IMG/VR virus record: IMGVR_UViG_2698536590_000004
Coordinates: 1-33,618 of that record
DNA: 33,618 bases
Direction: 5' to 3' (one strand)
DNA from: a virus
Taxonomy: Duplodnaviria; Heunggongvirae; Uroviricota; Caudoviricetes
Made by a program: the position numbers and the translations under genes. Position 1 is the first letter of the stretch. Each line of letters begins with the position of its first letter. This document shows, piece after piece, positions 4,527-33,618 of this stretch. A model generated the notes under the pieces. It saw only the letters and a list, made by a program, of their open reading frames with translations. It had not been told where the DNA came from and searched no databases.

Positions 4527-4718
4527 TTAAAGCCCTGCCGGGACTTCGTTATTATCCATGCGAATAACTTTATCGACCGGATAACAGTTACCGGGAATTT
4601 TCTGTTCCGCTGCGGCAGCCATGCATTCTTTCATTGAGCCGTATACGCCAGTAACCATGTCAACCGGTTCACCGGAAACAAGAAAAACCGTCAGAACAAG
4701 TGCAAATGTGGTATTCAT
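4527..4718 (-). CDS. Small secreted/membrane-anchored protein, unknown function
   Basis: 63 codons from ATG at 4718 (MNTTFALVLTVFLVSGEPVD..., hydrophobic N-terminus); AGGA 8 nt upstream; start overlaps the stop of the upstream gene as ATGA. Confidence 0.45.
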   Translation of the reverse strand: MNTTFALVLTVFLVSGEPVDMVTGVYGSMKECMAAAAEQKIPGNCYPVDKVIRMDNNEVPAGL

Positions 4719-4903
4719 TGCCAGTATCCTTTTTGAGTCGGACGTAAACGGGCCAGCATAGAAAGAATGCAAATTTGATTTAATAACTCCCGTTCGTGTT
4801 TTCTCTTATTAATGGCATCTTCAGTAAATACAGGGTTACTGATTCTGACACCAATTTCAAAACAACCTTCAGACGTATTAACGTTTGGTAATAACGTTTC
4901 CAT
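4715..4903 (-). CDS. Small hypothetical protein, first gene of the leftward early operon
   Basis: 62-aa ORF, same strand as the exonuclease, stop overlapping the next start. No recognisable family. Confidence 0.4.
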   Translation of the reverse strand: METLLPNVNTSEGCFEIGVRISNPVFTEDAINKRKHERELLNQICILSMLARLRPTQKGYWQ

Positions 4904-5439
4904 TATCGCGTCCTCAACAATGAATTTTGTGATGCGGTGCCTGGTGCCTCCAGGTGACGTTAACCAGTTAACAATTAACGCCGGATACAGGGAAACCCAT
5001 AAACACCCGATACGGGGGAACTAATCGCTTTTTAACTGTTCCGCGTGCGCTCAGCCGCATTCACCGCATCACAAAATTCACTTTAAAAAGGGCGGACATC
5101 AGCCAGCAATGAAACTGATGCCGCCAAAGGTACAAATCAACATGGAGTGTTGTAGCGGGGTTGTCACTCAGGCGTATGGTCAACCTGACAACCCGGTGCT
5201 ACCAGTGGGGGTAAGGATAACCCCGCCATACTTACCGCCGCGCCATTTCGCGGAGTGCCACAACCGGAAGCGCACGGTCGAAGATACCGGCGACACGCAA
5301 CAGAGGGAGAAATGACTTCGCCGTGCGCTTTCGTGTTGTGTGCCTGCTTTTAACCACGTCAGGCGAGGTGGTTCCTGTCATTCCCCAACGACAAGAAATC
5401 TGTATAATCTGGATATCCCCAACGATCCAAGGAAATCAT
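4904..5439. promoter_or_regulatory. Structured non-coding region between divergent early-left genes and the rightward accessory module
   Basis: Perfect 18-bp inverted repeat GAATTTTGTGATGCGGTG (4910-4927) / CACCGCATCACAAAATTC (5050-5067) flanking 122 bp; GTTAACCAGTTAAC (4947-4960); boxA-like CGCTTTTTAAC (5014-5024); hairpin GGGTTGTCA/TGACAACCC (5146-5182); 16-bp stem AAGCGCACGGTCGAAG/CTTCGCCGTGCGCTTT (5256-5319); TATAAT at 5391-5396. ORF-track ORFs here look spurious. Confidence 0.45.
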
Positions 5440-5586
5440 ATGACAGAGCAAAGAGCACAAGCAGGTGGTGGCAATTCGACACATAAAACAGTCTGGGATC
5501 ACATACCAGAGAAAAACATTCGACCAAAACCATCTCCAGCTCCTTCGGAGGAGAGGGGGAACAGCAACAACCAAACAAGCAGGTGA
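5440..5586 (+). CDS. Small hydrophilic protein (48 aa), possible first gene of the rightward accessory module
   Basis: ATG at 5440 with AGGAAA upstream; stop lies inside the RBS of the next gene. Low complexity, could be non-coding. Confidence 0.3.
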   Translation: MTEQRAQAGGGNSTHKTVWDHIPEKNIRPKPSPAPSEERGNSNNQTSR

Positions 5587-5592
5587 TGATGT

Positions 5593-6039
5593 ATGGACCG
5601 GGATGATATTCTTGACAGAATTTTATATGGCTATTTTCTTGAGCAACTATTTTCTGTAGCGACTGGTCGTCTCGATAAACTTCTCTCAGTGGTGAGTATT
5701 ATCCTCGGTTCATCTGTCATTGGCGGATTCATTCCGGAAATTTCTGGCGTTTTTATTGTTGTGATCGCAACCGTCCAAACGATTTATGGATTCGGACAAA
5801 AGTCAGGTAACGCCATGAGAAAATCCGCAGAATATTTGCAGCTTTTTGATGATGCAGAAAAATATTCTGATTCTGAATTGAAAATGCAGTTAAAAATTCT
5901 GGAAAAAACGGATGATCATATTTGGTCATCACTTAAAGATATTGCGATCTTAAAAACACAGATCAAAATAGGCGTTTCCATCGAACAACAAGAGAAGCTG
6001 CCCACAAAATCTAAATTGATGCGATTTCTTTGTGGTTAG
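5593..6039 (+). CDS. Two-TM membrane protein, unknown function (possible superinfection-exclusion/abortive-infection type)
   Basis: 148-aa ORF with AGGTGA RBS; two adjacent hydrophobic helices (LLSVVSIILGSSVIGGFI, ISGVFIVVIATVQTIYGF) then a charged C-terminal domain; opposite strand to the early-left operon. Confidence 0.6.
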   Translation: MDRDDILDRILYGYFLEQLFSVATGRLDKLLSVVSIILGSSVIGGFIPEISGVFIVVIATVQTIYGFGQKSGNAMRKSAEYLQLFDDAEKYSDSELKMQLKILEKTDDHIWSSLKDIAILKTQIKIGVSIEQQEKLPTKSKLMRFLCG

Positions 6040-6092
6040 GAATATCCAGAATGTTAAAGAGCATGCCGGAGATTTATCCGTGTCCGGCGCAT

Positions 6093-6117
6093 GTTCTCCA
6101 CCTCACCCGTGGAGAAC
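6093..6117. terminator. Hairpin between convergent genes (possible bidirectional terminator)
   Basis: Perfect 9-bp stem GTTCTCCAC-ctcaccc-GTGGAGAAC directly abutting the stop of the 6118..6504 gene and about 55 bp after the 5593..6039 gene; no clean U-tract. Confidence 0.4.
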
Positions 6118-6504
6118 TTAATGATTAATTGATATTTTATAGTTGGCTTCAACTTTCCCATCTGAAGTGGGATGCTTTAAATCACAGGAATTAATGTTGC
6201 ACTCAGTAAAATGGTTTTTAAGGGGTTCTATTCGAATCCCTTTCTTTTCCATCAACAAACCAAACCCCTTGTTAATGATATCCATTAATTCCAGGAAGTA
6301 TTTTTCAGAGGAATCATGCTTATCAGAGTGCTGCTTCTCTTCGTACAACCCGATAAAGGCACGGCGCACGTTACCGGATATATTATCTATGGTTTCTTTT
6401 TCTACGGTACTCAGGTCAAGAGTCGCCAATTGAGAACGAACTATATTCGCTGCCATTTCCTGGAAAGGTGTTGGTAAATCTTTAAATTCCATCGTTAATC
6501 TCAT
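6118..6504 (-). CDS. Hypothetical protein (128 aa), second gene of the module downstream of cI
   Basis: AT-rich ORF; start ATG overlaps the stop of the upstream gene (TGATGA); alternative ATG at 6492 (MEFKDL...). No motif I recognise. Confidence 0.6.
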   Translation of the reverse strand: MRLTMEFKDLPTPFQEMAANIVRSQLATLDLSTVEKETIDNISGNVRRAFIGLYEEKQHSDKHDSSEKYFLELMDIINKGFGLLMEKKGIRIEPLKNHFTECNINSCDLKHPTSDGKVEANYKISINH

Positions 6505-6734
6505 CAGTCAGTATTTCTGGATAACCAGCGACGCGCGCCAGCTTCGGTTTTAAACGTTTTGCTTTTGGTATACGTCATCGCGGTGAACGTACCGTCCTGG
6601 TTGGGAAACACGCCACATACCAGAGATTCGCTGTTGCCAAGATCGATAGTATCCATGTTGACCTCATTTCCCCTTAACGCCGGGGTAGCGGAACAAAAAC
6701 CTGCTGCATAGTTAAAGTTGAACCCTGCCGTCAT
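6504..6734 (-). CDS. Small hypothetical protein (76 aa, or 50 aa from the internal start at 6656)
   Basis: Downstream of and co-oriented with cI; both in-frame ATGs (6734 and 6656) have plausible GAGG-type RBS. No family I can name. Confidence 0.5.
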   Translation of the reverse strand: MTAGFNFNYAAGFCSATPALRGNEVNMDTIDLGNSESLVCGVFPNQDGTFTAMTYTKSKTFKTEAGARRWLSRNTD

Positions 6735-6945: not shown

Positions 6946-7584
6946 TTAAATATCTTGTTGAATTTTAAAGCATACGCCCAATATGCAAGATAGATCATCC
7001 AGCATAATTGAAGGGTAGCGAGGATTCGTGGGGACTAAAAGAATATCCGGCCCTTCTATCTCCAGTTTACGAATGACAGGTGTTGTGGTCCCTTTGGGTA
7101 AGGCAAGGACAATATTTCCTGGTTGTACGGTTCGATCGGGATCAACAAAAACTGTTGAACCATTTGGGATGGAAACTCCCCCACCAGATGTTGACATACT
7201 GTCACTCTCTAGAACAACTGCAAAGGTATTGGCCGGGATTTCTCCGACAAGCTGCACACAAGAGGTTATTGAGGAATTTTTCATATAATCACTCCAGCTT
7301 GCTGCCTGCTGAAGTGATAGTAGCGGAACCGTTTTTATCGGCGGTAAAGATAGATCAAGCGAATCACCTGTATTTAACTCTCCTCCATTAAGAAGCCAAT
7401 TTTCGTTTACTTTCAATATCTTTGCCAGTGAACTTATGTAACGCGAGGACGGCGCTCCTCCACCGTTCATCCATTGACTTACGGAGCCTTTTGATGCGCC
7501 AGTGGCATTGACAAGGTCTTTGCCTTTCAGGTTTAGCGCATGCATACGTTGGGTTATGCGTTCAGATATTGTTTGCTTGCTCAT
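6946..7584 (-). CDS. CI-like prophage repressor: N-terminal XRE-type HTH plus C-terminal S24 (LexA-like) peptidase domain
   Basis: 212-aa ORF; N-terminal region (ISERITQRMHALNLKGKDLVNATGASKGSVSQWMNG) reads as an HTH; the C-terminal half reads as an S24 autopeptidase domain with candidate catalytic Ser (ESDSM) and Lys (VIRKL); divergent from the cro-like gene. Confidence 0.9.
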   Translation of the reverse strand: MSKQTISERITQRMHALNLKGKDLVNATGASKGSVSQWMNGGGAPSSRYISSLAKILKVNENWLLNGGELNTGDSLDLSLPPIKTVPLLSLQQAASWSDYMKNSSITSCVQLVGEIPANTFAVVLESDSMSTSGGGVSIPNGSTVFVDPDRTVQPGNIVLALPKGTTTPVIRKLEIEGPDILLVPTNPRYPSIMLDDLSCILGVCFKIQQDI

Positions 7585-12950: not shown

Positions 12951-13161
12951 TTTTATATTGGCGAGGTGACGTGAGTTAAGTAGAATTGCTGCGGGTGATT
13001 GAGGCTATCTGCCTCAGGCATGAACACCAAAGGCAGATAGAGAAAAGCCCCAGTTAACATTACGCGTCCTGCAAGACGCTTAACATTAATCTGAGGCTCA
13101 ATCTATGAACAGCAAATCTAGGTTAGCCTCTTACGTGCCGGAAGGCAAGGAGAAGCAGGCT

Positions 13162-13317
13162 ATGAAGCAGCAAAAGGCGATGTTAATCGCCCTGATCGTC
13201 ATCTGTTTAACCGTCATAGTGACGGCACTGGTAACGAGGAAAGACCTCTGCGAGGTACGAATCCGAACCGGCCAGACGGAGGTCGCTGTCTTCACAGCTT
13301 ACGAACCTGAGGAGTAA
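13162..13317 (+). CDS. hok: Hok/Gef-family type I toxin (HokD/RelF-like, 51 aa)
   Basis: MKQQKAMLIALIVICLTVIVTALVTRKDLCEVRIRTGQTEVAVFTAYEPEE matches the Hok family and, as I recall it, E. coli HokD; AAGGAG RBS; in-frame upstream extension to 13105 also open. Confidence 0.85.
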   Translation: MKQQKAMLIALIVICLTVIVTALVTRKDLCEVRIRTGQTEVAVFTAYEPEE

Positions 13318-15578: not shown

Positions 15579-15608
15579 TTGACCAGACACATTGTCCGGG
15601 GCTATATT
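15579..15608 (+). promoter_or_regulatory. Candidate late promoter PR' (sigma70 -35/-10)
   Basis: TTGACC (15579-15584), 18-bp spacer, TATATT (about 15603-15608), immediately after the Q stop; small hairpins follow (qut-like region). Confidence 0.55.
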
Positions 15609-15668
15609 CCTCACGCGCCAGCAAAATCTGGCGTCGGGATTGGCGTCCCGGATGAAAAAGGCGACAAC

Positions 15669-15690
15669 AGACGCGCCAGCGTCTTTTTTA
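15669..15690 (+). terminator. Intrinsic terminator tR'-like (target of Q antitermination)
   Basis: AGACGC-gcca-GCGTCT stem-loop followed by TTTTTT, about 60 nt after the candidate PR'. Confidence 0.6.
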
Positions 15691-15847
15691 TTGTCGTTTG
15701 CACTGTCACATCTCAATGGTGGGCTGTGTGGGGGCGGAGCGATCCGCGCCGGTTCCTTTTTCCCGGTTACGCCAACCCTGCACAGTTCACCACCATACTG
15801 ATTGGCGTCAGCAGTGGTGATGATTCACATAGAAAAAGGATCATCCT

Positions 15848-33037: not shown

Positions 33038-33618
33038 TGGCATTCAGAATGAGTGAACAACCACGGACCATAAAAATTTATAATCTGCTGGCCGGAACTA
33101 ATGAATTTATTGGTGAAGGTGACGCATATATTCCGCCTCATACCGGTCTGCCTGCAAACAGTACCGATATTGCACCGCCAGATATTCCGGCTGGCTTTGT
33201 GGCTGTTTTCAACAGTGATGAGGCATCGTGGCATCTCGTTGAAGACCATCGGGGTAAAACCGTCTATGACGTGGCTTCCGGCGACGCGTTATTTATTTCT
33301 GAACTCGGTCCGTTACCGGAAAATTTTACCTGGTTATCGCCGGGAGGGGAATATCAGAAGTGGAACGGCACAGCCTGGGTGAAGGATACGGAAGCAGAAA
33401 AACTGTTCCGGATCCGGGAGGCGGAAGAAACAAAAAAAAGCCTGATGCAGGTAGCCAGTGAGCATATTGCGCCGCTTCAGGATGCTGCAGATCTGGAAAT
33501 TGCAACGGAGGAAGAAACCTCGTTGCTGGAAGCCTGGAAGAAGTATCGGGTATTGCTGAACCGTGTTGATACATCAACTGCACCTGATATTGAGTGGCCG
33601 ACTTCACCTGCAGAGTAA
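33037..33618 (+). CDS. tfa: Tail fibre assembly protein Tfa
   Basis: 193-aa ORF beginning [41 protein letters not shown], closely resembling lambda Tfa as I recall it; start overlaps the stf stop (TAATG); ends with TAA at the window edge. Confidence 0.9.

Follow-up and report, generated by a model that had tools for sequence, protein, structure and literature searches.

Proteins of the SLATT superfamily are pore-forming effectors that occur commonly in bacterial antiviral defence. They serve as effector or accessory parts of experimentally shown anti-phage systems, for example DRT10 (10.64898/2026.04.29.721553). They are also present in the DRT3, RADAR and CBASS anti-phage systems (PMC9226505), and they have been reported as effector or accessory components in tested anti-phage systems (10.1101/2024.12.27.630466). 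Standalone small SLATT_4 proteins occur in viruses too (10.1101/2025.10.09.676808), and the way in which SLATT proteins are activated has been described as still open (10.64898/2026.04.29.721553). The present analysis deals with a two-gene cassette at positions 5424-6041 of a 33,618-nucleotide (nt) stretch of DNA from a Qin/Rac-type lambdoid prophage of Escherichia coli (IMG/VR record IMGVR_UViG_2698536590_000004, hereafter the window), which is 100% identical to E. coli 1303 across this region. The cassette encodes a small proline-rich peptide and, behind it, a 148-amino-acid (148-aa) membrane protein. It is a widely conserved and so far undescribed two-gene prophage unit, and a good candidate for a phage-exclusion module. 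No description of the protein family, the peptide or their pairing was found in the literature on the accession of the 148-aa protein, on SLATT proteins in prophages, or on dicF/dicB morons. The cassette is not a categorically new system; what is new is the kind of partner that the SLATT-type effector has and the setting in which it occurs.

The closest described systems are those that contain SLATT proteins (CBASS, DRT10/UG17, DRT3, RADAR and Shaseng). They share with the cassette a hairpin of two transmembrane (TM) segments set between helices and the character of a mobile, conflict-associated gene, and the family of the 148-aa protein gives both SLATT_4 profile matches and SLATT fold matches. 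The cassette differs from these systems in several ways. First, no partner of the nucleotide cyclase, TIR, SLOG or reverse transcriptase kind lies nearby. Secondly, the membrane gene is invariably linked to a proline-rich peptide of 22-52 aa. Third, it sits in the cargo slots of temperate phages. Lastly, the window protein lies below the detection level of every curated SLATT model.

A second group of comparisons concerns known prophage exclusion proteins. SieB of lambda and P22 (PF14163), which was reportedly described as an abortive exclusion protein by Ranade and Poteete in 1993, is also a lysogen-type gene lying antisense in the early-left operon; the lambda sieB open reading frame (ORF) is on the + strand (J02459 34482-35036), antisense inside the pL operon. 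SieB also has N-terminal TM helices and a cytoplasmic C-terminal part, as the 148-aa protein does. It has no upstream peptide gene and instead uses an internal start (Esc), and it has no sequence or profile similarity to the 148-aa family. A preliminary description of the window, made from the sequence alone, had likened the 148-aa protein to SieB-type proteins and proposed a profile comparison. The likeness holds for position and orientation and does not extend to family membership. The protein had no Pfam match at E<=1, whether to the SieB, Imm or Rex families or to any other, and the profile comparison, run with hhalign, gave no relationship, with a probability of 0.2% for the family profile against lambda SieB and 0.6% against RexB. 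As a control, lambda SieB matched its own Pfam family at 1e-29 and RexB matched its own at 8.5e-92.

The lambda RexA/RexB pair is likewise a two-component prophage system and lies beside cI; its membrane protein is believed to depolarise the cell once the partner has activated it. However, the rex genes are co-transcribed with cI, unlike the cassette; RexB (PF15968) belongs to a different Pfam family and has four TM helices, whereas the 148-aa protein has two TM segments; and RexA is a 279-aa protein, whereas the cassette partner is a peptide. No RexA-like neighbour gene was found at the cassette in the window, and no RexB Pfam match was obtained. The mycobacteriophage Butters gp30/gp31 and Sbash gp30/gp31 defences and the HK97 gp15 moron are lysogen-expressed cargo near the immunity region, in which a small inner-membrane protein, sometimes together with a soluble partner, excludes heterotypic phages. 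Their partners are full-size proteins, unlike the cassette peptide, and homology is not expected.

The linked peptide and membrane genes

Both genes of the cassette are read on the + strand. The 148-aa ORF begins with ATG (5593-6039), and its Shine-Dalgarno sequence, AGGTGA (5581-5586), lies 6 nt ahead of that start. The upstream ORF also begins with ATG and has 48 codons (5440-5586); an AAGGA at 5429-5433, read from the sequence, is its Shine-Dalgarno sequence, and its TGA stop (5584-5586) falls within the AGGTGA of the membrane gene. The strong ribosome-binding site and the overlapping stop that the preliminary description had noted are thus both borne out. The encoded peptide has 48 aa and an isoelectric point of 9.7, is basic and hydrophilic, and carries the motif DHIPEKNIRPKPSPAPS.

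The arrangement was followed through a set of 14 diverged loci, which consisted of two E. coli allele types, Salmonella (L045), L053, Providencia phage PSTNGR2lys, phage EKP1, Citrobacter-type prophages, five Vibrio P2-like prophages, and the metagenomic phage L054. Identity of the main protein to that of the window is 45% in PSTNGR2lys, 31% in EKP1, about 28% in the Citrobacter-type prophages and about 20-25% in the Vibrio P2-like prophages. An upstream small ORF with a Shine-Dalgarno sequence is present in all 14 loci; it encodes 22-52 aa and stops 5-23 nt before the main ATG, and in most loci its stop touches or overlaps the Shine-Dalgarno sequence that follows. Across the 14 contexts read, this small proline-rich ORF is the sole constant neighbour of the membrane gene. 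The peptides share the motif [DN]-[HK]-[IFL]-x(3-5)-R-P-x(1-2)-P-x-P, which is seen in the window peptide as DHIPEKNIRPKPSPAP and in peptides of other loci as, for example, EHIPEKNVRPTPPPPVP, PDHFKRHRPRDPEPP, DKFNVPHRPAPVPVRP and QVPYRPAPAPKPP. A stricter automated screen, which required an ATG start, at least 20 codons and the motif within 160 nt, identified the small ORF in 12 of the 14 loci, where 0.016 would be expected if the upstream sequence were shuffled; both of the missed ones exceed the 160-nt frame.

Conservation of the peptide is not confined to its prolines. The residues MGNPDHF in Vibrio and HIPEKN in enterics are also conserved, and the uncorrected ratio of nonsynonymous to synonymous differences (pN/pS) of the peptide is 0.12-0.57, similar to the 0.10-0.47 of the main ORF. 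The small ORF is unannotated in RefSeq, and where databases call it at all they label the peptide "hypothetical protein." The preliminary description had listed a "possible" 48-codon ORF here; the ORF is present and that wording is too weak, for by its conservation the small ORF is a real, conserved and selected partner gene of the membrane gene. One further observation concerns the EKP1 locus (L004), which comes from a record labelled as an Elizabethkingia phage (OM284015). Its genes are of a lambdoid, enterobacterial style, and a near-identical peptide was found in Enterobacter roggenkampii. The host label of this record looks doubtful.

A natural deletion separates the two genes. Two direct repeats of 14 nt flank most of the small ORF on the + strand, the first at 5457-5470 (ACAAGCAGGTGGTG) and the second at 5575-5588 (ACAAGCAGGTGATG), the latter including AGGTGA and the small-ORF stop. 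Recombination between them yields a deletion of 118 base pairs (bp), which takes out codons 10-48 and shifts the remainder of the small ORF over the main start. The deletion was found in 8 of 38 informative IMG/VR loci and in some complete genomes (L011-13, L019-22, L044 and L061-63). Among the IMG/VR loci scored with an intact small ORF, all 30 of 30 have an intact 148-codon ORF. The deletion lineage comprises five alleles, of which two are intact, one has V61D (in the second TM segment) together with E104G and Q133H, one has Q69*, and one has a frameshift. The membrane genes of these alleles show 0 synonymous and 3-6 nonsynonymous differences, whereas the two allele types that retain the small ORF intact differ by 31 synonymous and 10 nonsynonymous changes. 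For this single lineage and small sample, the pattern is suggestive of a loss of constraint, or of selection for inactivation, on the membrane gene after loss of the peptide gene.

The membrane protein and its probable SLATT relationship

Hydropathy places the two TM segments of the 148-aa protein at residues 30-47 (nt 5680-5733) and 51-67 (nt 5743-5793), joined by a three-residue turn, P-E-I. The first 29 residues contain 4 K/R and 6 D/E, and there is an amphipathic helix at the N-terminus; the last 81 contain 14 K/R and 12 D/E and form a helical, charged C-terminal domain. The two adjacent TM helices and charged C-terminal domain given in the preliminary description are therefore confirmed. 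The protein is predicted to sit in the inner membrane by its two-helix hairpin, in an N-in/C-in topology, and to have its helical domain in the cytoplasm.

When 1.84 billion representatives were searched with a profile, the protein fell into a family that forms 143 clusters at 50% identity; almost every member is a standalone protein of 150-180 aa. No member of these clusters has a Pfam domain or a name in the cluster annotation, and in PHROGs the 148-aa protein belongs to phrog_6315, of unknown function. A related-locus search of genome contigs gave no match. Curated models were then applied to 104 members of the family. Among NCBIfam models, SLATT_4 (NF033632) matched 45 of the 104 (best E 1.2e-5), SLATT_1 matched 17 and SLATT_fungal matched 3, and every other NCBIfam family was matched by at most 7. 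In the PADLOC models there were eight weak matches, all to SLATT or CBASS 2TM effector models except one to Csn2. Pfam was less informative; its SLATT models matched only 2+2 members, at E 0.04-0.08, and a few weak HEPN_Cthe2314 and ATP-synt_I matches were also obtained.

The structure was modelled with AlphaFold2 (AF2) from the 104-sequence alignment, with a predicted local distance difference test score (pLDDT) of 93.6 and a predicted TM-score (pTM) of 0.84. This run replaced an earlier one that used 6 close homologues and reached a pLDDT of 59.9. The model has helices at residues 3-44, 48-65, 67-86, 93-105, 113-126 and 138-147. In a Foldseek search of BFVD, the top named matches were mostly annotated as SLATT, with a probability of about 1.0 and a query TM-score of 0.5-0.68; these are proteins of giant viruses. 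The PDB gave no solved structure comparable to the model. From the profile matches and the predicted fold, we conclude that the 148-aa family is probably an unannotated and divergent branch within the SLATT superfamily, with SLATT_4 as its closest relative. The earlier statement that function could not be assigned from the sequence was thus too pessimistic, as the family can be placed among 2TM effectors.

In otherwise near-identical alleles, codon 108 (5914-5916) has been replaced repeatedly (D108N, D108V and D108G). This recurrent change may reflect diversifying selection on the cytoplasmic domain.

The cargo slot and its antisense setting

The cassette occupies a variable position in the prophage. 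The Qin prophage of K-12 aligns to the window at 4703-5284 and again at 6078-6118, with 113 unrelated bases in place of 5285-6077. E. coli A19 (L058) matches the window at 4921-5423, diverges, and matches again at 6042-6091, with an unrelated gene for a 170-aa protein on the + strand between (L058 2628-3140), and E. coli RM9322 has a + strand gene for a 66-aa protein in the same slot (L059 2596-2796). Neither of these alternative cargo genes has a Pfam or PADLOC match. Since A19 and RM9322 share the flanks and carry other cargo, the exchanged segment is about 5424-6041. Thus, 5424-6041 of the window is a two-gene cargo cassette in a variable slot, probably a self-contained "moron," and the stretch that separates dicF from the gene at the ydfC position is an exchangeable cargo slot.

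Distribution and composition were also examined. The cassette is present in 89 of 5426 complete E. coli genomes, 72 of which have at least 80% of its length, and it is found beside different immunity regions, with either S24 cI or DicA. It is AT-rich, with 34-40% GC compared with 48-57% towards DicF. The conserved left flank of the slot (5315-5423, + strand) contains the sole promoter-like element, is common to prophages with other + strand cargo, and occurs in about 2000 E. coli genomes that do not have the cassette. A truncated form was also seen: about 17 E. coli O145 genomes retain only window 5500-5684 of the cassette (L064, RM9872, 1501-1685), and an IS3-family element lies just past this remnant.

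The slot lies in an operon that is read in the opposite direction. In leftward order, the window has the S24-type cI gene (6946-7584), a promoter-like site on the - strand from the promoter scan (6861-6833), a DUF1391 gene that resembles ydfA and is the first of the leftward operon (6504-6734, - strand, Pfam), and a 128-aa gene of phrog_6937 (6118-6504, - strand, PHROGs), which takes the place of ydfB/ydfC in the early-left operon. Past the cassette there follow a DicF-like small RNA with a terminator (5090-5138, - strand; 38.7 bits, below the Rfam gathering score of 48), where the scan placed a terminator-like site (5122-5095, - strand), then the dicB cell-division inhibitor gene (4715-4903, - strand; Pfam DicB at 3.9e-36), DUF1482 and a large exonuclease gene. 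This gene order is the dicB operon layout of K-12 Qin. Because the DicF-like small RNA and dicB lie beyond it, the cassette is embedded antisense within the early-left ydfA-DicF-dicB operon. The preliminary description had called it convergent with the cI operon; the opposite strand is right, and the relationship is more than convergent. To judge from the gene order, leftward transcripts have to pass through the cassette before they arrive at DicF and dicB.

Similar placement is seen elsewhere. All 14 contexts are temperate-phage regions, and in 13 of them the cassette runs antisense to the phage operons around it. In the lambdoid and Vibrio P2-like prophages it is near the repressor gene, and in EKP1 it adjoins the lysis cassette, on the strand opposite the lysis genes. 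Four of the Vibrio P2-like prophages (L049, L050, L055 and L056; 7200-9900) also have differing genes of known defence type beside cI, on the other side from the cassette. These are GmrSD_N with HEPN, SNIPE/T5orf172, and AAA_15/AAA_21 with or without RloB. The cI-adjacent region thus gives these prophages a second variable slot, one for defence genes.

On the right side of the slot there are tandem hairpins (6065-6117), the first at 6065-6088, in the right slot flank and part of the prophage backbone, and the second with a perfect 9-bp stem (6093-6101/6109-6117), adjoining the stop codon of the leftward 128-aa gene. The + strand fold of the pair has z = -3.67. The 9-bp hairpin had been taken as the boundary between the cassette and the convergent module. 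The perfect stem exists; however, in alignment it is also found just downstream of ydfC in K-12 Qin. It was rejected as a cassette terminator because it is backbone sequence. On the leftward strand it has no U-tract, and on the + strand the tract after the tandem hairpins is A/U-rich and not U-rich. In Citrobacter-type prophages, the backbone elements 5323-5372 and 6063-6118 are adjacent to each other, 5' of the cassette (L046 4773-4865; L051 4751-4864), and together they may make up a single structured RNA or recombination site. Other RNA matches in the window include a sub-threshold STnc100-like match over the dicF-dicB spacer (4871-5092, - strand) and gathering-level Rfam matches at 12993-13167, 15602-15797 and 33380-33578 (sok antitoxin RNA; isrK with C4 antisense RNA and its a1/b1 targets; IS009).

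Proposed function and its alternatives

The interpretation preferred here, which is held to be about evenly balanced between right and wrong, is that the cassette is expressed in the lysogen and works as an exclusion or abortive-infection module, which permeabilises the membrane under the control of the peptide. Superinfection exclusion or abortive infection had been suggested in the preliminary description; this is still the best reading, though not by way of a SieB, Imm or Rex family protein. The cassette would be transcribed from its own putative promoter in the lysogen, while the repressor would keep the surrounding leftward operon silent. The peptide, as a co-evolving regulator, would either hold the membrane protein inactive or make it competent. 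Upon infection by a heterologous phage, the membrane protein would oligomerise and permeabilise or depolarise the inner membrane, and the infection would in turn be excluded or aborted. When the resident prophage is induced, leftward transcription would shut the cassette off through collision and antisense RNA. A more specific version can be put forward only tentatively, as a possibility that is more doubtful than the general one. In this version a SLATT-type pore would be gated by the coupled R-P-x-P-x-P micropeptide (22-52 aa) and not by a nucleotide second messenger, and the peptide would sense infection, for instance through its titration or degradation or because its synthesis stops. The cassette would then be a minimal new class of prophage immunity, spread via the cargo slots of lambdoid and P2-like phages of gamma-proteobacteria.

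Several observations weigh against these proposals. First, the window protein is below the reach of curated SLATT models, with nothing at E<=1 against those of Pfam and NCBIfam. Its link to the superfamily rests on the family members, on one weak PADLOC match (RTasSLATT, E=0.002) on which the link leans, and on the fold match, and the BFVD fold matches reach an E of only 4e-3 to 0.1. In addition, we know of no role for the SLATT proteins of eukaryotic viruses. Secondly, no nucleotide-signal or nucleic-acid partner (SMODS/nucleotide cyclase, SLOG, TIR or reverse transcriptase) was found in the 14 contexts read. Third, the candidate for an independent promoter is a -10 hexamer that is no more frequent than chance. 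A TATAAT is present as the preliminary description had said (5403-5408, + strand, 32 nt 5' of the small ORF) and is a putative -10 element. It is retained in 4 of 5 aligned slot variants (the window, L002, L053, L058 and L059), 2 of them with unrelated cargo. However, the window contains 11 copies of TATAAT against 11.6 expected by chance, so that the hexamer was rejected as statistical evidence of a promoter, and the promoter scan made no call at the cassette and gave no convincing -35 element for it. Also, in L054 the cassette is co-oriented with its neighbours, between exonuclease and baseplate genes. Lastly, the decay of the membrane gene after small-ORF loss comes from a single lineage in which two alleles are still intact, and neutral decay accounts for it just as well as counter-selection of a toxin.

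Of the other explanations, an addiction or toxin-antitoxin role is unlikely, though it has several observations on its side. Here the SLATT-like protein would be a membrane toxin and the peptide its labile antitoxin, and the main role of the pair would be to stabilise the prophage or the slot and not to serve defence. The small upstream partner, with its stop codon in the Shine-Dalgarno sequence of the next gene, suggests translational coupling, and a nonsense mutation, a frameshift and a charge in a TM segment, without synonymous change, after loss of the peptide are what would be expected of an unneutralised toxin. However, the two peptide-less alleles that keep an intact membrane ORF do so in several genomes. 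Also, expression may simply be lost in the deletion allele, because the truncated upstream ORF overlaps the main start. Toxin-antitoxin and abortive-infection roles are in any case not mutually exclusive.

It is also unlikely that the small ORF is a cis-acting leader only, through which coupling or proline pausing would set the level of a membrane protein that acts alone. The overlap or abutment of its stop with the next Shine-Dalgarno sequence in most loci would suit such a leader, no fusion of peptide and SLATT-like protein (a "Rosetta stone") was found in the family, and several alleles have PPPP runs, which are motifs dependent on elongation factor P (EF-P). However, consecutive prolines are not universal, the window having RPKPSPAPS and L056 having KPRDPEPE. 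For this reason EF-P-dependent polyproline stalling was rejected as the role that the small ORF has kept across loci. The number of codons between motif and stop also varies, from 0 to 12, amino-acid conservation extends outside the proline motif at the pN/pS values given above, and no significant mRNA structure masking the main Shine-Dalgarno sequence was found (z = -0.41).

Less likely again is a membrane function in the lytic cycle, either lysis timing in the manner of a holin or antiholin, or a depolarisation that blocks secondary infection during lytic growth. Class II holins have the topology of a two-TM N-in/C-in hairpin, as predicted for the 148-aa protein, the gene is co-oriented with phage genes from exonuclease to baseplate in L054, and it lies beside the lysis cassette in EKP1. 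However, the EKP1 gene is on the strand opposite the lysis genes, and the antisense orientation to flanking lytic operons in 13 of the 14 contexts argues against such a role. The cytoplasmic domain is large, unlike that of holins. In addition, the cassette is dispensable for the phage life cycle, since it is absent from most related prophages.

Homology to SieB, Imm or Rex proteins is very improbable; position and orientation are those of lambda sieB and the layout of an N-terminal 2TM part and a C-terminal domain is similar, but the Pfam and hhalign results given above refute it as far as sequence and profile comparison go. That these are chance ORFs or functionless decaying remnants can be dismissed almost entirely, despite the annotation of the main protein as merely hypothetical and the missing annotation of the small ORF, in view of the 143 clusters, purifying selection on both ORFs, the high-confidence predicted fold, and two-gene synteny kept at 20-30% protein identity.

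The exclusion-module interpretation has several consequences. The spacer between ydfC and dicF in dic-type prophages, as an exchangeable cargo slot, is worth mining, and current defence-finding profiles (PADLOC 2023) barely detect the 148-aa family. If the interpretation is true, at least 143 clusters would be added to the catalogue of prophage-encoded exclusion genes, and this would be a case in which a system cannot do without an unannotated small ORF. With only two genes in about 620 bp, and a micropeptide as the sole partner, the cassette would then be the simplest available model of SLATT gating.

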